A stretch of DNA of 41,698 nt from Patescibacteria group bacterium (GCA_019428825.1 JAHYJU010000001.1:1-41698), one strand, 5' to 3'; positions 2,664 through 41,698 are shown, counted from the first letter of the stretch. Translations and numbers: made by a program. The notes: generated from the sequence alone by a model not told the origin.

Positions 2664-5660
2664 TTATTTTTTATCAAAATTCTTGTCAATTAGATTCAAA
2701 ACATCAGCTGTAAAAGATTTTTTACATTTTTTAAGATCTTCAAGAGATCCTTCAAAAAGAATTTCCCCGCCCTCATCTCCGCCCTCGGGGCCAAGATCAA
2801 TAACCCAATCACAATTTTTAACCACATCTAAATTATGTTCTATCATAAGAACTGTATTCCCTCGGGCGGTAAGTCTTTTGCAAATAGAAATTAAGTTTTC
2901 CAAATCAGCGAAGTGTAAACCTGTTGTAGGTTCGTCTAAAATATATAATGTACTCCCGGTGGATCTTTTTGATAACTCAAGTCCTAATTTAACCCTCTGG
3001 GCTTCCCCACCCGATAAGGTCGGCGCAGGCTGACCTAGTTTTATGTAACCCAAACCAACGTCATACAGAGTTTCCATCTTTCTTCTTATCTGAGGAATAT
3101 TTTCAAAAAAACCTAAGGCTTCTTCTACGGTCATGCTTAAAACATCAGCGATATTTTTACCTTTGTATTCTATCTCTAAAGCTTCAGAGTTGTATCTTTT
3201 ACCTTTACAAACCTCACACTTTACATAAACGTCGGGCATAAACTGCATCTCTATCTTTATCTGACCTTCCCCGCTACAAGCTTCACATCTACCACCCTTT
3301 ACATTAAAACTAAAACGCCCGGGCTTATATCCTCTTATCCTTGCTTCTTGTGTTTGAGAAAAAAGATCTCTTATATGATCAAACACTTTTGTATATGTTG
3401 CAGGATTGGATTTTGGGGTTCTCCCTATCGGACTTTGGTCTATGGCAATAACATTAGAAATGTTCTCCACACCCTCAATAGAGCTGAATGGTTCAGGTTT
3501 TTCCTCGATTTTCAGACCGTATTCTTGCCTTAAAGCCTGATAAAGAGTGTCCATTATCAAAGTAGATTTTCCTGAACCCGATACACCCGTAACACAAACA
3601 AATTTACCAAGCGGAACTGTAAGATCAACTTTTTTTAAATTCCTTCCCGTTGCTTTTTTCAAAACTAAACTCTGACCTCCAACTTTTTTCTGAACTTTAT
3701 GATTAGTTTCCTCTATCAAAACATCCTCCAAAGCTCTTTTTCCTTTGACTAAATTTCTACCAACTATTAAATCTCCGGATAAATATCTACCTGTCAAAGA
3801 ATTTTTATCTTTTTTAATTTGGTCGGGAGTTCCTTCTGAAACCACCTCTCCGCCATGCTCACCGGCGCCCGGTCCAAAATCAAAAACATAATCGCTTTCG
3901 AGAATAGTTTCTCCGTCATGCTCAACCACTAAAACCGTATTTCCCAGATCCCTAAGCTGATGAAGTGTTTTTATAAGTTTTTTCTGGTCAACTTGGTGTA
4001 ATCCTAAAGAAGGTTCATCCAAAACGTACAAAACTCCGCTTAAGCCGGAACCTATTTGAGAAGCAAGTCTTATTCTTTGAGCTTCTCCTCCGGATAACTC
4101 GCCTGAAGCCCTGGCCAGAGTTAAATAACCAAGACCTACATCTACCAAAAATTTAACTCTGTAATTAATTTCTTTTAAAATAGTTGAGGCAATACTGTTC
4201 TCTCTGGAATTTAATTTTTCCGGTAATTTTTCAAACCACATTTGAACTTTATTTACAGGCATTTGAGTAACGTCATTTATATTTTTCCCATCAAGAGAAA
4301 CGGAAAGAGATTCTTTTTTTAACCTAGCTCCATCACAAACGTGGCACTGCTCTTTTATCATGTATTTTTCTATTTCTCCTTTTATATAATCGGACTCGGT
4401 TTCCCTGTACCTTCTCATTAAATTAGGAATGATACCTTCAAAATTTGCGTCAAAAAATCTTTTTGAGCCTTCCTGACTTTTGTATGAAACTTTAAATTTT
4501 TTATCTACTCCATATAAAAGAATTTTTCTAGCTTCTTCACTTAACTCTCCAATAGGTTCATCCAGAGAAAATCCGTAGTGATCTGAAACTGATTTAACAA
4601 CTCTTGATGTCCATGTAATGTGTTCAAATAACCTGGTCCAAGGTAATACTCCGCCTTCAGAAACCGAAAGCCGAGGATTTATGACCATATCTGCATCAAC
4701 TCTTAATTGATTTCCAATACCGTCACAAGCGAGACATGCTCCATGAGGTGAGTTAAAAGAAAATGTTCTTGGCTCTATTTCGGGAAGTGATATGTTGCAA
4801 ACAGGACATGCAAAATTTTCCGAAAAAAGATAATCTTCAAAGTCTTTTGGATTTTGGGAAAAATCAAATGTTTTATCTCTAACAATTGTTACGATTGCAT
4901 TACCTACGCTCATCCTGAGAGCAGTTTCTACTGATTGATATATTTGGCTTTCTATTTCTTTTTTATCTATTTCTTTTTTTATTTTCTTTTGACTTACAGT
5001 GTGTCTTGAAATTAGAGCGTCTATAGTGTGTTTGTTCGTTTTTATTAAATTAAAATCTTCCGATAACTCACGGGTATCTCCATCTACTCTGGCTCTAACT
5101 ATTCCTTGTTTTTTAAGATTTTCAAATAAAGATGAAAATTCTCCTTTTCTGTCTTTTATTACCGGAGAAAAAATTATGAACCTAACTCCTTTTTCACTTT
5201 TAAAGTCGGGGTCTTGGGAAATTATTTCGAATATATTTTCAACAATTTCCTGAGTCGATTGTCGCTCAATTTCTCTACCGCACTCCGGGCAATGGGGATG
5301 ACCTATTCTCGCATATAATAGACGCAAGAAATCATACACTTCCGTGATTGTACCTACTGTAGATCGAGGATTTTTGCTTGTTGTTTTTTGGTCTATTGCA
5401 ATTGCAGGAGATAACCCCTCTATTTTTTCAACATCAGGTTTGTCCATTACTCCTAAAAACTGTCGGGCATAAGCGGAAAGACTTTCTACATACCTTCTCT
5501 GACCTTCAGCATATATTGTATCCATTGCTAAAGAAGATTTTCCGGATCCCGATACTCCTGTAAAAATTACCATTTTGTTTTTTGGAATATCCAAGTCTAT
5601 GTTTTTTAAATTGTGCTGTCTTGCACCTCTTATTAAAATGTGTGAAATTGAGTCTTTCAT
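2664..5660 (-). CDS. uvrA: Excinuclease ABC subunit A (UvrA)
   Basis: 998 aa. Two ABC modules with Walker A (GVSGSGKSS and GVSGSGKST) and two LSGGEAQR signatures. Zn-finger Cys pairs are present (CPECG, CPVCN...CLACDG, CEAC...CEVCKG). Confidence 0.95.
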   Translation of the reverse strand: MKDSISHILIRGARQHNLKNIDLDIPKNKMVIFTGVSGSGKSSLAMDTIYAEGQRRYVESLSAYARQFLGVMDKPDVEKIEGLSPAIAIDQKTTSKNPRSTVGTITEVYDFLRLLYARIGHPHCPECGREIERQSTQEIVENIFEIISQDPDFKSEKGVRFIIFSPVIKDRKGEFSSLFENLKKQGIVRARVDGDTRELSEDFNLIKTNKHTIDALISRHTVSQKKIKKEIDKKEIESQIYQSVETALRMSVGNAIVTIVRDKTFDFSQNPKDFEDYLFSENFACPVCNISLPEIEPRTFSFNSPHGACLACDGIGNQLRVDADMVINPRLSVSEGGVLPWTRLFEHITWTSRVVKSVSDHYGFSLDEPIGELSEEARKILLYGVDKKFKVSYKSQEGSKRFFDANFEGIIPNLMRRYRETESDYIKGEIEKYMIKEQCHVCDGARLKKESLSVSLDGKNINDVTQMPVNKVQMWFEKLPEKLNSRENSIASTILKEINYRVKFLVDVGLGYLTLARASGELSGGEAQRIRLASQIGSGLSGVLYVLDEPSLGLHQVDQKKLIKTLHQLRDLGNTVLVVEHDGETILESDYVFDFGPGAGEHGGEVVSEGTPDQIKKDKNSLTGRYLSGDLIVGRNLVKGKRALEDVLIEETNHKVQKKVGGQSLVLKKATGRNLKKVDLTVPLGKFVCVTGVSGSGKSTLIMDTLYQALRQEYGLKIEEKPEPFSSIEGVENISNVIAIDQSPIGRTPKSNPATYTKVFDHIRDLFSQTQEARIRGYKPGRFSFNVKGGRCEACSGEGQIKIEMQFMPDVYVKCEVCKGKRYNSEALEIEYKGKNIADVLSMTVEEALGFFENIPQIRRKMETLYDVGLGYIKLGQPAPTLSGGEAQRVKLGLELSKRSTGSTLYILDEPTTGLHFADLENLISICKRLTARGNTVLMIEHNLDVVKNCDWVIDLGPEGGDEGGEILFEGSLEDLKKCKKSFTADVLNLIDKNFDKK

Positions 5661-33739: not shown

Positions 33740-34948
33740 ATGAAAAAATCACTTGGAAAAATCATTCTTGTCGGATCGGGAAATGTCATAAATGCGTTGT
33801 TGGGATTTGCGTTTCTTTCAGTAGTTGCAAAAACTCTAGATCTGGAATCTTTTGGTAAATACGCTCTCATTACTACCCTACTTGTAGCTATTTCAAAATT
33901 AATAGATTTTGGAACTAATTCAGTTTATGTTGCAGAATCAATATCAAAAGAAAACGAATCGTTAACAAATCTTTTTTATACTCTAAAAACAATACTTCTT
34001 GGCATATCCATACCAATATCTTTTATCATACTCACTCTTTTAAAACTAAACTATGGAAATTTAGTTCTCTACTTCATTCTGGGTCTATTTGCTTATACAA
34101 TTAACTACACTTTAAATGCGTTTTTTCAAAAAGATGAAAAATTTATACATCTAGTCTCCCTTAACACTATCCCGGCTATTATTAAAGGCATATTTGCCTA
34201 TTTAATCTTTTCAGGAAATATAAAAATGGATATGGAAAAAGCATTTATGGTTTTCTCGTTGTCAATTTTTTCAAGCGTATTGCTAGTATTTTTTCTTTCC
34301 CCGAAATATAAAAAATTTAAACTTGATTTTTCTCATGTGAAAAAATATCTAACTAAATCAACTCCTGCCGGAATATCTCAACTAATATATGAAGGCTGGC
34401 CGTCAATAGCAAATTCAATCGCTAAAATAGCCAAAGATTTTTCGAATGTTGGAATATTCTCTATCGCAGAAAAAATCTCGAATGTGCTTTTGCTGGGATC
34501 AATATCTATATTCACAGTTCTTCTGCCAAAAAACGCCTATGCAAAAAAACGCCACGAGAAATATAATTTTAAAGAAGTTTTTTATATCTCAATTTTAATA
34601 TTAATAGTAGCGTTTTTTGGCATATTCATATCCAGGTTCTTCATATCGGGCTTTTTTGGAGAAAAATTTAATGAATCACTACCGCTCTTAGGATTTTTAA
34701 TATTCGCCAGTGCTTTCACTTCCATACACACCTTCATGGAGCACTATTTCTTTATTGAGGAAAAGACAAACTACATTATGTACATAAATGCCGGGAAATT
34801 ATTTTTATTCCTAGTACTTTCTTACATATTAGTCCCAACTCTATCATTAAAAGGACTGTCTCTTTCAAGCCTTGTATCGTCCATATCGGCTTTAATGTTC
34901 ACTGTATTTTTTATTAGAAAAAATCAAAACCTATCAAAATCAGTCTAA
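33740..34948 (+). CDS. Wzx-like oligo/polysaccharide flippase (MOP superfamily)
   Basis: 402 aa and polytopic throughout. The N-terminus LVGSGNVINALLGFAFLSVVAKTLDLESFGKYALI is typical of polysaccharide biosynthesis/flippase proteins. Confidence 0.7.
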   Translation: MKKSLGKIILVGSGNVINALLGFAFLSVVAKTLDLESFGKYALITTLLVAISKLIDFGTNSVYVAESISKENESLTNLFYTLKTILLGISIPISFIILTLLKLNYGNLVLYFILGLFAYTINYTLNAFFQKDEKFIHLVSLNTIPAIIKGIFAYLIFSGNIKMDMEKAFMVFSLSIFSSVLLVFFLSPKYKKFKLDFSHVKKYLTKSTPAGISQLIYEGWPSIANSIAKIAKDFSNVGIFSIAEKISNVLLLGSISIFTVLLPKNAYAKKRHEKYNFKEVFYISILILIVAFFGIFISRFFISGFFGEKFNESLPLLGFLIFASAFTSIHTFMEHYFFIEEKTNYIMYINAGKLFLFLVLSYILVPTLSLKGLSLSSLVSSISALMFTVFFIRKNQNLSKSV

Positions 34949-37788
34949 AGATTCTCAAGGTCAAAAACACCATCCTCGGGAGGTACGTACCATAATAACC
35001 AAGGATCATATTCCTTAACTTGTTTTGAAGGATTGCTGTATCCGGGCACATTTTCCCTAAATCTGCTTTTTTTACTAATAAATATTAATGGTTCAGTTTT
35101 ACTTACTCGAGGAACTCTTTCCGGATTAACAACATTCACATCTGTCGCCACAAAAGGACCATCAGAATAAAAGAGCGGTGTTGGCATTTCCATTCTGTCC
35201 AAGTAAACCTCTCTTTCTATTCCAAAAAACTCGTCTTTTAGCATCAATAATTTTGCCTGAGGACCATTCAAGTCAGGTGTGTACACTAAACTCTTGTTTA
35301 AAAATAAGTAAAATAATGAAAATGAAAGTAAAAGATATAAGCTAAGGAATTTAAACGATGCAGAGTTTAAAAACTTTATTTTAGTCACAATAAAATCCAA
35401 AACTCTTTCTGAAAAATTACCCACAATTAAACAAAGTACGGGGTATACGGGAATTATGTACCAAACTAGCTTTGATTTGGCTATTGAGAAGAATAAAAAG
35501 ATGCTTATAGCCCATATTGATAGAAATACATGTTTTCTATCTTTTTTAAATGCGTGAAATACAGAAAAAGGTAAGGCTCCCAAAAGTGCTACAAACCAAA
35601 TTCTCATACTTACCTTTATAACTATCACATACCAAAAGAAGGGATTACCCTTATCCTCTATCACTGATGTTGCTCTATCCCAAACATGATAAAAAAAGTA
35701 CTTATCTAAAAACGATTTTCCAAATAACTGATACATTGTGAGGTGCCAGGGTAAAGCCACTAGTAGAAAAGGTAAAAACATAAAAAGATATTTGTAAATT
35801 AATCTTCGATTGACTTTCTGTTTGTAAAAAATGAAAAGATAGATTTCATATAATCCAATAACTAAAAATGGAAGAAGTCCTACAAAGCCTTTTGTCATAA
35901 CAGCCAAACCCACAGAAGCTCCCGATAATATCCATAAAATATTTTTTTCGTTTTGTTTTGCAAGCCAATAAAGATATAAAGACAAAGTGATGAAAAATGT
36001 AGCGGTAACGTCCAGCATGGAAGCCCGAGAGTAATATAAAAAATGAACTGTTGTTGTAAGAGCAAGTGCTGATATAAAAGCTGTAGTTTTATTGAAAAGT
36101 TTTTTCCCCATAAAATAAACTAAAAGAACAGTCAAAAATCCGAATATCGCGCTGGGAAGCCTCGCAGACCAAGAATTAAAACCTAAAATATTCATAAATC
36201 CTGACATCATCCACATATATAGAGGAGGTTTTTCGAACCATCCGGTTATAAAATTGTCCCAATATGGAATTATGTACTCATTTCTTACCACCATGTTTTT
36301 AGCCACTTTTGCGTATATTGCCTCATCCCATGGAATAAGATGGTTTTTCCCTAAACTTATAAATAAAAGACCAAGAGACAATAAAATAATTAAGGATAGA
36401 AGTATTTTGCTATTTTTAAAGAAATATCCGGAAACTTCTTTAAACCACTCCTTACCTACATTTCCTATCCCCCAAATGAAAAAAGAAAACATCATAATCC
36501 AAAAAAACTCTGCGTTGTAAGAATAAAATATTCCCGCCATATACCACCCAAAAACAACTGATGAAAAAACCCCGCCAATGAATCTATTATTTTTGTCCTT
36601 ACCTTTAAAAAATACGTACAGAGGGGTGATGAGTACAAAAAGTGAAAAAAGTACGTAAGGAACAGTACCGATTATTCCGGTTTCGGATAGAGACTCTCCC
36701 CAAATTGTGTGTGCCGGCACGCGATTGCTAAGGGCTGCGGTATCTCGTGTGAAAAATTCAGGGGCTATTTTTGTTTTACTGAAATGTTCAAAAAAAGAAC
36801 CATAACCACCACCCAAATAAGGATATTTTTCAAATATCTGGTATGTACCTGTCAAAAGCATAAAGTGAGAATCAAAAGAATCGATTCTATAATGGAAAGC
36901 GTCTCTCACGTATCGCCTGAAATTGCTTTTTTTCTTGTTGTATTCTATTAAAAAAGGGGTTGAGACCAAAACTATTGCTAGAAAAATATATACTAGACCT
37001 TTTGACCCAAACTTTTTTATCATTAAAATTGTAGCGAAAAAAAGAACCGCAAAAGCCATAACCATCCATGCGGTCCTGGAATTGGTCAAAAGCAACGAAG
37101 CACTTGATGAAAGAATCATAAAAACATTTAAAACCTTTGACTTCAAATTTTTATCAGTGAAAAGGAAGATTCCCATTATGGGAATGGTTGCCGCCAACAA
37201 AGCTCCGTAGTGATTTACATCCCAAAAAAGTGATCCTACCCTGGGAATTCTTCCTGGCACAGGCCACATGGCCCCTATAACCCTTTGGGTTTGATAAAAA
37301 TATACTAATTGAATAAAACCGAACAAAGAGAGTCCGAAAACAACGTAGGTAAAAAATCTCAGGTACTTAATAAGTTCATCGGGTGTATCTTTAAAAGTCA
37401 AATACAAATAAATTCCTAAAGCTACAACGGTGGTAAAAAATCCAAATAAAAGTAAGCTGGCTTGAATATTTTTTGAAAATATTATTGATAAACCTCTGGT
37501 GAACCAGATTACCAGCAGAAAAAGTATGTAGGGGTCTTTGAAGTAAGATAGGAGGGATTTGATGCCTCTCTCTTTAACAACATAGAAATAGATTTTAGTT
37601 ATACCCGAACACAATAAAGCCAACATAAATACTCTGACAGGCATCAAATCCCATCTGTAAAAACTGAAAAGTTCCTTGTGCAAAAGCACGGATAAAACTA
37701 TCAAAATATACAAGGAAAGTTTAAAATCCTTTAATATTAGAATATATGAAGCTAAAAATATTAAACCTATTGATACCAAATAAAGCAT
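34945..37788 (-). CDS. Fusion membrane protein: N-terminal O-antigen ligase/polymerase-like (Wzy_C) domain plus C-terminal GT-C glycosyltransferase (ArnT/PMT_2-like)
   Basis: 947 aa. The N-terminal half carries LLLTNSRTAWMVMAFAVL ... YPYLGGGYGSFFEHF ... PAHTIWGESLSETGIIG (Wzy_C pattern). The C-terminal half starts with IPWDEAIYAKVAKNM ... EKPPLYMWMM ... ARLPSAIFGFLTVLLVY (GT39/83-type first-loop DE motif). The boundary falls near nt 36400. Confidence 0.7.
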   Translation of the reverse strand: MLYLVSIGLIFLASYILILKDFKLSLYILIVLSVLLHKELFSFYRWDLMPVRVFMLALLCSGITKIYFYVVKERGIKSLLSYFKDPYILFLLVIWFTRGLSIIFSKNIQASLLLFGFFTTVVALGIYLYLTFKDTPDELIKYLRFFTYVVFGLSLFGFIQLVYFYQTQRVIGAMWPVPGRIPRVGSLFWDVNHYGALLAATIPIMGIFLFTDKNLKSKVLNVFMILSSSASLLLTNSRTAWMVMAFAVLFFATILMIKKFGSKGLVYIFLAIVLVSTPFLIEYNKKKSNFRRYVRDAFHYRIDSFDSHFMLLTGTYQIFEKYPYLGGGYGSFFEHFSKTKIAPEFFTRDTAALSNRVPAHTIWGESLSETGIIGTVPYVLFSLFVLITPLYVFFKGKDKNNRFIGGVFSSVVFGWYMAGIFYSYNAEFFWIMMFSFFIWGIGNVGKEWFKEVSGYFFKNSKILLSLIILLSLGLLFISLGKNHLIPWDEAIYAKVAKNMVVRNEYIIPYWDNFITGWFEKPPLYMWMMSGFMNILGFNSWSARLPSAIFGFLTVLLVYFMGKKLFNKTTAFISALALTTTVHFLYYSRASMLDVTATFFITLSLYLYWLAKQNEKNILWILSGASVGLAVMTKGFVGLLPFLVIGLYEIYLFIFYKQKVNRRLIYKYLFMFLPFLLVALPWHLTMYQLFGKSFLDKYFFYHVWDRATSVIEDKGNPFFWYVIVIKVSMRIWFVALLGALPFSVFHAFKKDRKHVFLSIWAISIFLFFSIAKSKLVWYIIPVYPVLCLIVGNFSERVLDFIVTKIKFLNSASFKFLSLYLLLSFSLFYLFLNKSLVYTPDLNGPQAKLLMLKDEFFGIEREVYLDRMEMPTPLFYSDGPFVATDVNVVNPERVPRVSKTEPLIFISKKSRFRENVPGYSNPSKQVKEYDPWLLWYVPPEDGVFDLENL

Positions 37789-38983: not shown

Positions 38984-40131
38984 TTAGTTTCTCCTAAAAG
39001 TTTTTTGTATAAATTTTCGTAACTTTCAATAAATTTTTCCATGGAATAATTTTTCTCTACAAACTCCTTTGCCCCCTCAATAATAAATTTATTTTCACCA
39101 CCTGTTTTATTGTACTCATCTTCCATATTGTCAGACAAATCGTTAAAATCCCCAACCTTGAAAAAATCAACAAAGCCTCCGCCTACTTCTTTTAATACTT
39201 CCAGGTCCGAGCATATGGTGGGTATCCCCATCGAAAGTGCTTCAATTAAGACTATACCAAAACCCTCGGCAAATGTCGGAAAAACAAAAACGTCAAAAGT
39301 AGAGAGATATTTTATCTTTTCACTATCTTCAAATCTTCCGGTTATTACAACATTTTCTTCAATACCTAATTCTTTAGTTAAATTTTTTATTTTGTCTTCT
39401 AAAGCCCCTCCCCCAACTAACATTAAGTAAAAATTCTCTCGACGGAATAGATGGGATTCTAAAAATTTTGCAAATGCTCTAACTAAAATCTCGTGACCTT
39501 TTTCCACAGTAATTCTCCCCAGATTTCCAAAAACAAAAGCTCCTTCAGGTATGTTATACCTTGATTTTATTTCTTTTTCATATTCGTATCTTTGAATTGA
39601 TGAAACTAATAATTTAGAAGTATCTAAACCATTGGGAATTATTGTTAATTTATCGCCCCTCATACCTTCCTTCATTTTTATATTTTTTCTTGATTGTGTT
39701 AGAGCAATTTCAGTAGTTGTAAAAAAATTGATTAAAAAACTGTAACCAAGAGTTGTAAAAAACCTGATTATTTTATTAATTCTCCATTCAGATATTGGGG
39801 TGTGAGTGTGGGAAACCCTTACCTTAACGCCGGCGAAAAATCCTGCTAAAAGAGCGTTTGTAACAGCCTTTAGCTCGTGGGCATGAATAATATCGATAGA
39901 ATTATTTTTTAAAAATTTTGTAAGTTTAAAGATGTAAACCGGGTCTATATCGAATTTTATCTTTTGTTCAATTCCCATTGCCCCGTCACTTTTATAGATT
40001 TCCATCATCTCGCCTTCCGGACACCACACAAATATTTCATGATCTTTTTTCTTCATACCACGAACTAAATCAGCAACATGCACTTCCATCCCCCCAAATT
40101 TTGATGAGTTTAATACGTAGAGTATTTTCAT
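38980..40131 (-). CDS. GT-B glycosyltransferase (GT4-like)
   Basis: 383 aa. N-terminal GGMEVHV and C-terminal AEGFGIVLIEALSMGIPTICSDLEVLKEVGGG. 4-nt overlaps with both neighbours. Confidence 0.8.
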   Translation of the reverse strand: MKILYVLNSSKFGGMEVHVADLVRGMKKKDHEIFVWCPEGEMMEIYKSDGAMGIEQKIKFDIDPVYIFKLTKFLKNNSIDIIHAHELKAVTNALLAGFFAGVKVRVSHTHTPISEWRINKIIRFFTTLGYSFLINFFTTTEIALTQSRKNIKMKEGMRGDKLTIIPNGLDTSKLLVSSIQRYEYEKEIKSRYNIPEGAFVFGNLGRITVEKGHEILVRAFAKFLESHLFRRENFYLMLVGGGALEDKIKNLTKELGIEENVVITGRFEDSEKIKYLSTFDVFVFPTFAEGFGIVLIEALSMGIPTICSDLEVLKEVGGGFVDFFKVGDFNDLSDNMEDEYNKTGGENKFIIEGAKEFVEKNYSMEKFIESYENLYKKLLGETK

Positions 40132-41333
40132 TCTATATTTTCGGAAATTAATTTCAGCATATTTTTAACTTTGCCATCCCAAGTATGAACTTTGGAAACT
40201 TCATGCCTCTGGTTAATCTTTGGTGGGTTATTTTCTTCCAGGGCAATCCTGATATTTTGTGAGAACTCATTGGGGTTTTTTGAAACATAGCTCACGTCTT
40301 CAAAAGGAGCATATGTTGGAAGATCTGTTACAACGGTAGGTAACCCTGAAGCTAAATAATCTAAAAACTTCACAGGGAAACACCCACCAATAGTGTAATT
40401 ATTCAGTTGATAGGGAATTACCATAGCATCGAATTGGGATAAATATTTTGGCAGTTCGTTATAATCTTTTGTTCCTAAAAGATAAACATTTGGAAGATTT
40501 TCAAAACCTAGTTCTTTTTTTGATGTTGATCTGTCTTTTAAAGCCATAGGTCCAATCAAAACGAAAGAATATGAAGGGTAATCTTCTGCGATTTTTTTGT
40601 AAAGTTCTTTATCAAATTTATACTCATCAACAGCTCCCGTAAAACCTATGATCGGATGGGGAATGTCTTTTAGGTCCTCAGGAATTTCAAATCCCTTATT
40701 TTTTATATCAAAAAATCTTTCGTAATCCCCAACATTAGGTGTGAAATATGTTTTTGGATTTAATTTCCTAAGTTTTTCGGCTAAACCCGGCGTTGTCGAA
40801 AAAACAATGTTTGCTCGTGATGCCAAAAGCCTCTCCTGTTCAACAATCCACTTTTTCTTTTCAGGAGTATCGTACTTTGGAAAACCTTCGTAGTTATCCA
40901 CGCAATCATAAACCAAAAAATCGTGTTTAATATTTTTTAAGTAGTTTTCCAGCCCTTTTATCTCCACATGGTAAATCCACAAAATAGTTTTTCGAGATTT
41001 GTCTTTTTGGAAAATTTCTCGGGCTACTTCATCAATTTTTTTAGCGTGTTTTATGGAATATTTTTGACTTAGGGGATGGGTGTTTAAGGGTGAATAAACG
41101 ATAACTCCTTCGTCTGTTTTAGTTTTTTTAGTGATAATTCTTCCCAATGACCACTTTCCCCGAAAAAGATGTCTGAAAAAAAGTCTTCCCATGTTTATAG
41201 GTGGGTCAACAAATAAAACATTGTGACCGAGTTTTGGGAGTCGACCCATAACATGTCTTTTATTAGTCCATAGAGGGAAATCCCACAGCTGGTTGGAAAG
41301 GCATATCACATTGTATTTTTGATCGTTTTTCAT
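40128..41333 (-). CDS. Glycosyltransferase (GT-B fold, TuaH-like); first gene of the minus-strand glycan operon
   Basis: 401 aa. The N-terminus VICLSNQLWDFPLWTNKRHVMGRLPKLGHNVLFVDPP resembles teichuronic-acid-type GT1 proteins. Confidence 0.6.
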   Translation of the reverse strand: MKNDQKYNVICLSNQLWDFPLWTNKRHVMGRLPKLGHNVLFVDPPINMGRLFFRHLFRGKWSLGRIITKKTKTDEGVIVYSPLNTHPLSQKYSIKHAKKIDEVAREIFQKDKSRKTILWIYHVEIKGLENYLKNIKHDFLVYDCVDNYEGFPKYDTPEKKKWIVEQERLLASRANIVFSTTPGLAEKLRKLNPKTYFTPNVGDYERFFDIKNKGFEIPEDLKDIPHPIIGFTGAVDEYKFDKELYKKIAEDYPSYSFVLIGPMALKDRSTSKKELGFENLPNVYLLGTKDYNELPKYLSQFDAMVIPYQLNNYTIGGCFPVKFLDYLASGLPTVVTDLPTYAPFEDVSYVSKNPNEFSQNIRIALEENNPPKINQRHEVSKVHTWDGKVKNMLKLISENIE

Positions 41334-41338
41334 ATTTT

Positions 41339-41500
41339 TTCCGGACTGAGTCTGGCACAGGGCCTAGCACAGGGCTCAGCCCTAGGCTGAGCCCTAGGCC
41401 GGGCCCTAGGCTGAGCCTAGCATAATAATATTATACATTGAAAGGGTTATTAGATAAGGTGGAAATTCCGGACTGAGTCCGGCGCTAGACTCAGTCTAGC
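41339..41500. repeat. GC/CTAG-rich 12-bp-periodic array of interrupted palindromes, flanked by 14-nt direct repeats and a 10-bp inverted repeat
   Basis: Exact 12-nt units [cag/cta]+GGC-NNN-GCC lie at 41370-41381, 41382-41393, 41394-41405 and 41406-41417, with a degenerate unit at 41358-41369. The related 9-mer GACTSAGTC occurs at 41344-41352, 41471-41479 and 41488-41496. The direct repeat ttccggactgagtc occurs at 41339-41352 and 41466-41479. There are seven CTAG between 41364 and 41499. Confidence 0.8.
41430..41435 (-). promoter_or_regulatory. Perfect TATAAT (-10) on the minus strand inside the repeat element, pointing at the glycan operon
   Basis: The minus strand reads aaTGTATAATatt. Only a weak -35 is present. 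The GC-rich array would form the roughly 90-nt leader, and there is no SD before the ATG at 41333. Confidence 0.35.
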
Positions 41501-41698
41501 GGAAGACATTGGGGGCAAGCTCTTTCTAACATCTTAAACTTCACCATCATCCTTCGAATATTGAACGCAAGCTCGGAGTCCTTAATAGACCACAACCACG
41601 AAGTGTCTCTAAAACCGGTATCATATGCGGCATGCCAAATACTATCAAAAAATACAATGCCCATAACTTGCATAAATATCGAAAAATAAATTGATAAC
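41491..41698 (-). CDS. Possible 3' end of a gene that continues beyond the window (unknown product)
   Basis: The reverse frame is open from the window edge to a TGA at 41493-41491. The track lists it from an internal ATG at 41673. The stop codon sits in the loop of the 41484-41500 hairpin. No family recognised. Confidence 0.3.
   Translation of the reverse strand, partial: LSIYFSIFMQVMGIVFFDSIWHAAYDTGFRDTSWLWSIKDSELAFNIRRMMVKFKMLERACPQCLPLD

Follow-up and report, generated by a model that had tools for sequence, protein, structure and literature searches.

A block of GC-rich palindromes occupies positions 41339 to 41502 of a 41,698-nucleotide contig from a Patescibacteria group bacterium (GCA_019428825.1 JAHYJU010000001.1:1-41698), hereafter the window, upstream from the first glycosyltransferase gene of a glycan operon. 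The block very probably consists of two clusters of repetitive extragenic palindromic (REP) units, selfish repeats associated with a REP-associated tyrosine transposase (RAYT), which lie around a conserved, probable promoter and do not constitute a dedicated switch of the glycan operon. Palindromes of the same family are dispersed in related genomes, where they border RAYT-type genes; at the orthologous site, the block is present in some lineages and not in others, and in the window it supplies a stop codon. An earlier note on the window had proposed four origins for the block: a structured leader RNA or attenuator, an operator array, an invertible promoter, and a small element resembling REPs or miniature inverted-repeat transposable elements (MITEs). 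The last proposal is the one that held, in the form of a dispersed Patescibacteria repeat family flanking RAYT-type genes.

The GC content of the block is 0.68–0.70 locally versus 0.30–0.39 across the contig. Four exact 12-nucleotide units, composed of cag or cta followed by GGCTCAGCC, GGCTGAGCC, GGCCGGGCC, and GGCTGAGCC, occupy positions 41370–41417. Tandem Repeats Finder reported this array at 41373–41417 (period of 12, 3.8 copies, score of 69, the highest of the contig). The related 9-mer GACTGAGTC was found at 41344 and 41471, and its inverse form GACTCAGTC at 41488. The tetranucleotide CTAG was present seven times within 136 nucleotides (41364–41499), for about 0.23 expected and a contig total of 70 in 41,698 nucleotides (approximately one per 600 nucleotides). 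Two copies of the direct repeat TTCCGGACTGAGTC were observed for 0.09 expected, a number reached in none of 100 shuffled sequences. Hairpins were predicted at 41371–41381/41385–41395 (11 bp), 41341–41355, 41468–41482, and 41484–41500, and the fold of the entire region was stronger than that of shuffled sequences (z = −6.4 to −7.9). An exact 10-nucleotide inverted repeat (41344–41353 and 41487–41496; 18 nucleotides at 83%) brackets a 133-nucleotide segment holding a minus-strand TATAAT (41435–41430). Every sequence feature described in the earlier note was recovered at the given positions, and the block as a whole is far above chance.

The block is organized as two clusters of palindromic units, to which no strand was assigned, on either side of an AT-rich core. 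In the gene-proximal cluster, the unit closest to the ATG codon of the glycosyltransferase gene is TTCCGGACTGAGTCTGG (41339–41355), a member of the GGACTSAGTCC subtype forming a 6-bp hairpin with one G-T pair. It is followed by degenerate units, CACAGGGCCTAGCA (41356–41369), which are predicted to pair with 41397–41407 (inverted repeat I1, with 23-nucleotide arms that are 83% complementary), and by the four-unit REP-like array with a 12-nucleotide pitch (41370–41421; central triplets TCA, TGA, CGG, and TGA; CTAG joints; nhmmer E = 9e-20). The AT-rich intergenic core (41422–41465, minus strand) carries the motif AATGTATAAT (41439–41430), which includes the −10-like TATAAT hexamer at 41435–41430 and is aimed at the glycosyltransferase operon. 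The second cluster (41466–41502) comprises two adjacent perfect hairpins, ccggacTGAgtccgg (41468–41482) and gctagacTCAgtctagc (41484–41500), and reaches into the upstream gene at its 3' end. Folded as single strands, the second cluster gave approximately −21 kcal/mol as RNA (z = −4.4) and −13.4 kcal/mol as DNA (z = −5.2). Pairs of units gave stems of 10 to 11 bp, as expected for REPs, which are palindromes able to form stem-loops as single-stranded DNA or RNA.

The earlier note had placed the block on the promoter and leader of the glycan operon. The block does lie upstream from the glycosyltransferase gene, but it is actually the whole spacer between two minus-strand genes and includes the stop codon of the upstream one. 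The downstream gene (40128–41333, minus strand) encodes the first glycosyltransferase (GT4) of the operon and matches the Pfam families Glycos_transf_1 and Glyco_trans_1_4. The upstream gene, of which only the 3' end is present (41491–41698, minus strand) since it runs past the end of the contig, was identified by synteny as a homologue of a gene encoding 462 to 466 amino acids in relatives. The hairpin gctagacTGAgtctagc has as its loop the TGA stop codon of this gene (41493–41491, minus strand), and comparison of the C-termini with those of the relatives showed that both the last codons and the stop codon of the gene come from the REP hairpin.

The orthologous spacer was compared in relatives, in which the gene order around the glycosyltransferase gene is well conserved (contigs and loci recovered in the searches are designated by L numbers). 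Homologues of the glycosyltransferase in WWE3 and other Patescibacteria are 55–79% identical to the window protein. No unit was found in the spacer of L092 to L095 (41–42 nucleotides) or in that of L109 and L110 (226 nucleotides). In the 84-nucleotide spacer of the two closest relatives, L108 and L111 (one lineage), a single hairpin was present, TCCGGATTAAACTCCGGA, which could be a decayed unit, whereas the 120-nucleotide spacer of L096 and L097 contained three differently built hairpins, two before and one after the conserved motif. Across seven lineages, the site was therefore occupied by no unit, by a possible relic, or by clusters of different size, with the inverted pairs, tandem clusters, and lineage-variable copy number that characterize REPs and the bacterial interspersed mosaic elements (BIMEs) that they form. 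Such variation in presence and copy number matches the behavior of REPs and BIMEs between strains (PMC3333891) and is the opposite of that of a dedicated regulatory element.

In contrast to the palindromes, the motif AATGTATAAT was kept upstream from the first glycosyltransferase gene in all seven lineages (the window, L092/L093, L094/L095, L096/L097, L108, L111, and L109/L110), whatever the length of the spacer and in the same orientation. Judged from its sequence and conservation, this motif is probably the −10 region of the operon. Its TG directly abuts the hexamer, unlike the canonical TGnTATAAT. The window core (41422–41465) aligns with the short native spacer of the relatives, and the GC-rich blocks are extra on each side. 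Thus, the core is native, probably promoter DNA around which two REP-like clusters were added, and the region at 41339–41500 is not the single unit that the earlier note had taken it to be. The gene-proximal block begins identically in the window and in L096, with TGCTAGGCTSAGCC located approximately 9 nucleotides past TATAAT.

The hairpin TCCGGATTAAACTCCGGA (within L108:2917–3000 and L111:2869–2952) matches the position of the gene-proximal cluster of the window and could be a REP unit decayed toward AT; the glycosyltransferases of L108 and L111 are 79% and 78% identical to that of the window, respectively. REP units were also observed in the next spacer upstream, before the 463-amino-acid gene, in L096 (8402–8488), L109 and L110 (8337–8357), and L111 (1423–1443), which represent three lineages, one of these units being the hybrid CCGGACTCAGCCTGGGGCTGAGTCCGG. 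The counterpart of this spacer in the window would fall approximately 1.2 kb past the end of the contig.

To define the distribution of the array, two adjacent units were used as a pattern to scan 185,579 species genomes (one genome per species). Thirty-nine loci were retrieved, 34 of which were chance matches in GC-rich genomes. The five others were in AT-rich Patescibacteria. The same intergenic array was present at four of these five loci (31–37% GC); the fifth, L031 (Woesebacteria), was array-free and apparently coding. A scan of metagenomes added two true members of the family, L083 and L089, the remaining matches being mostly unrelated eukaryote-like CCCTAG minisatellites. The scan of viral sequences gave no family member, its one match being an unrelated 12-nucleotide tandem repeat. 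The array of the window aligned with those of L005, L019 (three copies, two of which flank a RAYT gene), L030, L025, L083, and L101. Nine aligned copies yielded a consensus of approximately 48 nucleotides, GAGGGCTCAGCCCTAGGCTGAGCCCTAGGCCCGGCCCTAGGCTGAGCCC, with 23 invariant columns and a largely kept unit order, TCA-TGA-CSG-TGA. The block, for which the earlier note had suggested a search in other genomes, is therefore not unique to the window.

A census of the units, based on the 9-mer core G[GA]C[TC][CG][AG]G[CT]C and on shuffled sequences, showed that they occur 10- to 200-fold above expectation and always in clusters of two to six, with a pitch of 12 nucleotides in some genomes and 16 in others. 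The polarity of the TCA and TGA units mostly alternates, and neighboring units pair into hairpins because of this alternation; L083 has runs of like polarity. The GGACTSAGTCC variant was also found in intergenic DNA of other AT-rich Patescibacteria contigs. In relatives, L104 had seven clusters in 20.7 kb and L019 had three in 4.2 kb, while the L096/L025 contig had no fewer than three. The genes adjoining the arrays are unrelated (Pth, UvrD, RAYT, and others), and the orientation of the array varies: it and its flanking genes lie on opposite strands in the window, L005, and L019 but share a strand in L025 and L030. The CTAG tag recurs as CTAG-GCTCAGCCC in L104, L101, and L096, although CTAG is not found at every unit. 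A REP doublet is located in frame inside the gene encoding UvrD in L104 (11645–11730) and L107 (2164–2239), where it encodes a 19-amino-acid insert (..PGRTRARLSPARAEPG..) that is lacking in the UvrD orthologues of L098 and L019. Separately, a long tandem array with the same 12-nucleotide period, (GGCTCTGCCCTA)n, unrelated to the family, was observed (L063, L081, L090, and L091) in a 75-kb viral contig (IMGVR_UViG_3300022555_000043) of approximately 45% GC.

The arrays of L019 lie on both sides of a 193-amino-acid open reading frame (ORF; 3239–3820, minus strand) encoding a Y1 transposase (Pfam Y1_Tnp, 38 bits for a cut-off of 23). This protein has 540 homologues, several of which are named 'REP element-mobilizing transposase RayT' by the JGI pipeline. 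In 52 aligned homologues, H75 and H77 of the HUH motif and Y135 of the YIHxN motif were invariant. The AlphaFold (AF2) model of the protein (predicted local distance difference test score of 90.3) had as its top Foldseek match the E. coli RAYT in complex with a REP hairpin (4ER8; E = 8e-6, root-mean-square deviation of 3.2 Å, 162 aligned columns for a 165-residue target, template-modeling score of 0.64 normalized to the target, 15% identity), which outranked the transposases of ISDra2, IS608, and IS200. A search of the PDB with the single RAYT sequence gave no match.

Three further RAYT homologues (53–74% identity), carried by nine contigs, were examined. REP units were found at both ends of the gene in every such contig recovered, on one side within approximately 200 nucleotides upstream and on the other at its 3' end or overlapping it. 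Among the relatives, the dispersed repeats surround a Y1 transposase gene in L019, in L098, L099, and L100, in L101, L102, and L103, and in L104, L105, L106, and L107. The units flanking the gene in L098 and L099 are of the GGACTSAGTCC subtype, GGACTGAGTCC and GGACTCAGTCC, and also include CCGGACTGAGTCC, as in the window. The stop codon of the L098 gene is the TGA of a unit loop, like that of the gene located upstream from the block in the window. The neighborhood of the RAYT gene is mostly shared, with a diversity-generating retroelement (DGR) upstream (L098, L101, and L104) and, downstream, an ORF of approximately 190 amino acids and UvrD (L019, L098 to L100, and L104 to L107). In L101 to L103, a convergent gene is found downstream instead, and L102 and L103 have neither DGR nor UvrD. 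A neighborhood shared by most contigs is consistent with a single-copy RAYT gene.

Other features of these contigs were recorded. The RAYT gene lies directly downstream of the DGR in L098 (1285–3772), L101 (3225–6983), and L104 (6177–9800), all labeled as Saccharibacteria, so that two distinct DNA-diversifying systems adjoin. These DGRs contain target genes with Lcl_C domains and bAvd; those of L101 and L104 also have a reverse transcriptase (RVT_1). A conserved AT-rich motif, CTCTCTATTTT..[CA]TAGAATTTAC, lies between two REP clusters upstream from every RAYT gene (L019, approximately 3886–3945; L098; L101; L104) and may be the RAYT promoter or the boundary of the neighboring DGR. The RAYT protein P0134 ends with a 58-amino-acid C-terminal tail encoded by REP units (L104:10566–10754, 3' end). 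The contigs with RAYT homologues are mostly short, which would fit repeats breaking assemblies.

The arrangement is that of the REPtrons of E. coli and other bacteria, in which a RAYT gene is bordered by dispersed palindromes (PMC3333891, PMC3733652), and more generally resembles the REPs and REP doublets forming hairpins (REPINs) that accompany RAYTs, also known as TnpA-REP, in E. coli, Pseudomonas, and Stenotrophomonas (PMC3333891, PMC3116915, PMC3733652, PMC3479197). As in REPtrons, repeats lie on both sides of a Y1/HUH transposase gene, the neighborhood of which is shared by most of the contigs. As in REPs and BIMEs, the repeats are short GC-rich imperfect palindromes in intergenic DNA, arranged as pairs in opposite orientation and as tandem clusters whose size at one locus varies between lineages. 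REPs are also known to supply stop codons, to lie between co-directional genes or in frame inside genes, and to vary in copy number between lineages (PMC3733652, PMC3333891); the Patescibacteria units likewise supply stop codons (the upstream gene of the window and the RAYT gene of L098), separate co-directional genes, and sit in frame in the repair helicase UvrD. The tag at the foot of the hairpins, CTAG, is one base off GTAG, and the CC/TAG joints appear similar to the CC/T cleavage consensus of E. coli TnpA-REP, as a resemblance only.

The system also departs from its relatives in several respects. Unlike known REPs, the units follow a strict pitch of 12 or 16 nucleotides and are hosted by Patescibacteria with reduced, AT-rich genomes. 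Several species-level genomes share a near-identical repeat core, although REPs are usually described as species-specific (PMC6006769), and the identity of the Patescibacteria RAYT with the E. coli enzyme is 15% in the structural alignment. Insertion sequences of the IS200/IS605 family share the same Y1 fold, the catalytic motifs, and hairpin ends recognized as single-stranded DNA. In contrast to these insertion sequences, the Patescibacteria gene keeps a similar neighborhood and is not found at many sites, its hairpins are dispersed alone far from the gene, no tnpB lies beside it, and the structure closest to its model is the RAYT 4ER8 and not the IS608 or ISDra2 TnpA. Small palindromes tolerated in frame in reduced, AT-rich genomes are also represented by the Rickettsia palindromic elements, which are approximately 100–150 nucleotides long, and by the GC clusters of yeast mitochondria. 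To our knowledge, neither has an associated transposase, and we know of no sequence relation of either to the family of the window.

Several observations weigh against the assignment of the block to a REP-RAYT system. Characterized REPs have a conserved GTAG or GTGG tetranucleotide 5' to the hairpin foot (PMC3333891, PMC6006769); the window family instead has CTAG, which is self-complementary. The module is 9 to 11 nucleotides long and is itself nearly palindromic, versus 20 to 40 nucleotides for classical REPs. The L019 transposase scored 40.6 bits on the NCBIfam model REP_Tyr_transpos (NF047646), below the cut-off of 80, although this model was its sole NCBIfam match, and a profile-based sequence search of the PDB gave weak matches only (E = 0.03–0.18). 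Judged from its sequence, the Patescibacteria transposase is a divergent lineage and no equivalog of the proteobacterial RAYTs. In the window, units were found at one locus only of the 41.7 kb, a density far below those of L104 and L019: an nhmmer profile of the family gave no further match in the contig, and a relaxed pattern scan located all six of its GRCTSAGYC 9-mers within 41344–41496. No RAYT gene was detected by tblastn of the window contig, and the cluster could be a relic. Finally, the submitters of the RAYT-bearing contigs labeled them as Saccharibacteria, whereas the window comes from a metagenome-assembled genome related to WWE3, so that the link between the window and the RAYT gene rests on identity of the repeat sequence and not on co-residence.

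Among the other explanations, a dedicated leader RNA or attenuator regulating the glycan operon was the least unfavorable, and we consider it very unlikely. If AATGTATAAT is the promoter, the array would lie in the 5' leader, which has a strong predicted fold (−49 kcal/mol, z = −3.8), and a hairpin opening with the same TGCTAGGCTSAGCC is found in the same place in L096 and L097. However, the structure is missing from the leaders of L092 to L095, L109, and L110, whose operons are otherwise syntenic, and copies of the sequence adjoin genes of no common kind (Pth, UvrD, RAYT, and others), some in the direction of transcription and some against it. Rfam scans of the block at gathering and permissive thresholds returned no family, only meaningless matches to microRNA hairpins, and a terminator scan found neither an intrinsic terminator nor a U-tract after the hairpins. 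A side effect of the array on the leader RNA is possible.

An operator array for a dimeric DNA-binding regulator, with palindromic GGCNNNGCC sites spaced by 12 bp and overlapping the promoter, is less probable still. The units are indeed palindromic, regularly spaced, and adjacent to a −10-like motif. However, the same arrays are found at the 3' ends of genes, within coding regions, and around a transposase gene, their pitch differs between genomes (12 versus 16 nucleotides), they are absent from the orthologous promoters, and no regulator gene is adjacent. The relatives' spacers and the unrelated neighbors found elsewhere thus set aside both the leader RNA and the operator of the earlier note as the origin of the block. 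Equally improbable is a single composite MITE (41339–41502) with terminal repeats that would have been inserted whole by a DDE-type transposase, although TTCCGGACTGAGTC is directly repeated at both ends and the ends are also alike in inverted orientation. The interior (41422–41465) aligns with the native spacer of the relatives, including AATGTATAAT, indicating that the ends are separate insertions; moreover, the clusters occur singly elsewhere, and the associated enzyme is of the Y1/HUH and not of the DDE type.

We give even less credence to a phase-variable promoter inverting between the repeats at 41344–41353 and 41487–41496. Although these exact 10-nucleotide inverted repeats surround the TATAAT segment and the downstream genes make a surface glycan, the orientation of the motif is constant in all seven lineages, and palindromic REP units on both sides of any segment automatically produce flanking inverted repeats. 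Among the 28 ORFs of the contig scanned with Pfam, none was found to encode a tyrosine or serine recombinase, a scan that left aside a few ORFs of more than 100 amino acids, mostly overlapping larger ones, and all smaller ORFs. On these grounds, the invertible promoter of the earlier note lacks support. A guide-RNA array of the CRISPR type or of the tandem interspaced guide RNA (TIGR) type, the latter suggested by a short-period tandem array in a lineage with TIGR-Tas systems (PMC12045711), can be dismissed as having almost no chance of being correct: the TIGR unit is approximately 36 nucleotides long, with two alternating repeats of 8 to 12 nucleotides and variable 9-nucleotide spacers beside a Tas gene with a Nop domain (PMC12045711), whereas the present unit has 12 nucleotides of which only three vary, with the same values between genomes, and no Tas or Cas gene lies nearby. 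The same holds for the assembly or chimera artefact raised in the earlier note, which is excluded by the presence of the sequence in separately made assemblies (NCBI, ENA, JGI, and Logan).

In the REP-RAYT interpretation that we favor, each unit is a nearly self-complementary 9- to 11-mer, GGGCTSAGCCC or GGGCCSGGCCC, or the variant GGACTSAGTCC. Neighboring units, usually of opposite polarity, pair into hairpins of 10 to 11 bp and are linked at a 12-nucleotide pitch by the CTAG joints. By analogy with E. coli TnpA-REP, the Y1 enzyme most probably cuts and rejoins the units in trans as single-stranded hairpins (PMC3333891, PMC3479197). Local amplification of the units into arrays would follow. 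One cluster would have been inserted on the far side of the promoter-like motif, next to the end of the upstream gene, to which it now gives the last codons and the stop codon, and the other between AATGTATAAT and the start codon of the glycosyltransferase gene. With AATGTATAAT as the promoter, transcription would begin near 41423 and the mRNA would carry a GC-rich hairpin leader of approximately 90 nucleotides (−49 kcal/mol), in the predicted fold of which the A-rich start region remains unpaired. The hairpins at 41466–41502 would be located at the 3' end of the mRNA of the upstream gene, whose stop codon would fall within a stem-loop.

REPs can affect mRNA stability, read-through, and translation termination, and such effects are plausible at this locus. 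Candidates include stabilization of the operon mRNA by the 5' stem-loop, partial termination or 3' protection of the upstream message, and ribosome stalling at the stop codon buried in the hairpin. We infer that any such effect would be a by-product of insertion and not the action of a purpose-built switch. The block alone is therefore no evidence of special regulation of the glycan operon.

The same repeat core is found in WWE3-related genomes and Saccharibacteria-labeled contigs. This raises the possibility, which we regard as doubtful, of an old REP-RAYT partnership of the Patescibacteria that would have kept a near-constant core (GGGCTSAGCCC or GGACTSAGTCC, with CTAG joints) while the transposase diverged to approximately 50% identity. 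If so, either the host would select the hairpins, for instance as terminators or mRNA-end structures or because they modify the expression of surface-glycan operons where regulatory DNA is very scarce, or the repeats and their transposase would be transferred together repeatedly between these episymbionts.

The kind of system described here is well known, and automated annotation already names some of the proteins RayT. Its unusual traits are the 11-nucleotide near-self-complementary module, the strict pitch, the CTAG joints, the core shared across species, and the in-frame copies (UvrD and the C-terminus of RAYT). REP-RAYT systems have been studied almost solely in Proteobacteria, where they are seen as long-lived, vertically inherited replicators and discussed as shaping mRNA stability, termination, and nucleoid structure. 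A literature search on REPs or RAYTs in Patescibacteria, Saccharibacteria, or the candidate phyla radiation found no report, some keyword matches being judged by their titles only, which for those listed concern gut, rumen, and soil microbiomes. The present family would widen the host range to the ultra-small genomes of the candidate phyla radiation, which are usually deemed streamlined and repeat-poor, and accounts for GC-rich islands that could be mistaken for regulatory RNAs, operators, or phase-variation switches. The 193-amino-acid transposase and the 11-nucleotide module also provide a compact enzyme-hairpin pair for biochemistry.

The other genes of the contig are ordinary chromosomal genes (uvrA, uvrB, lexA, genes for penicillin-binding proteins, enolase, PPDK, mraW, and recO) in addition to the glycan cluster. 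The named relatives of the window UvrB belong to candidate division WWE3 (72–75% identity). A sigma-70 scan detected no full −35/−10 pair at the AT-rich core. In the glycan neighborhood of relatives, an inserted gene for an AbiEii-family toxin, accompanied by a small partner ORF, was found in L096 (4905–5582) and L109 (4739–5416) and was absent from L092 and L094. In the window, a single 947-amino-acid ORF (34945–37788, minus strand) encodes both an O-antigen-ligase-like Wzy_C domain and a glycosyltransferase domain of the PMT/PMT_2 type, a fusion kept in all relatives (948–949 amino acids).

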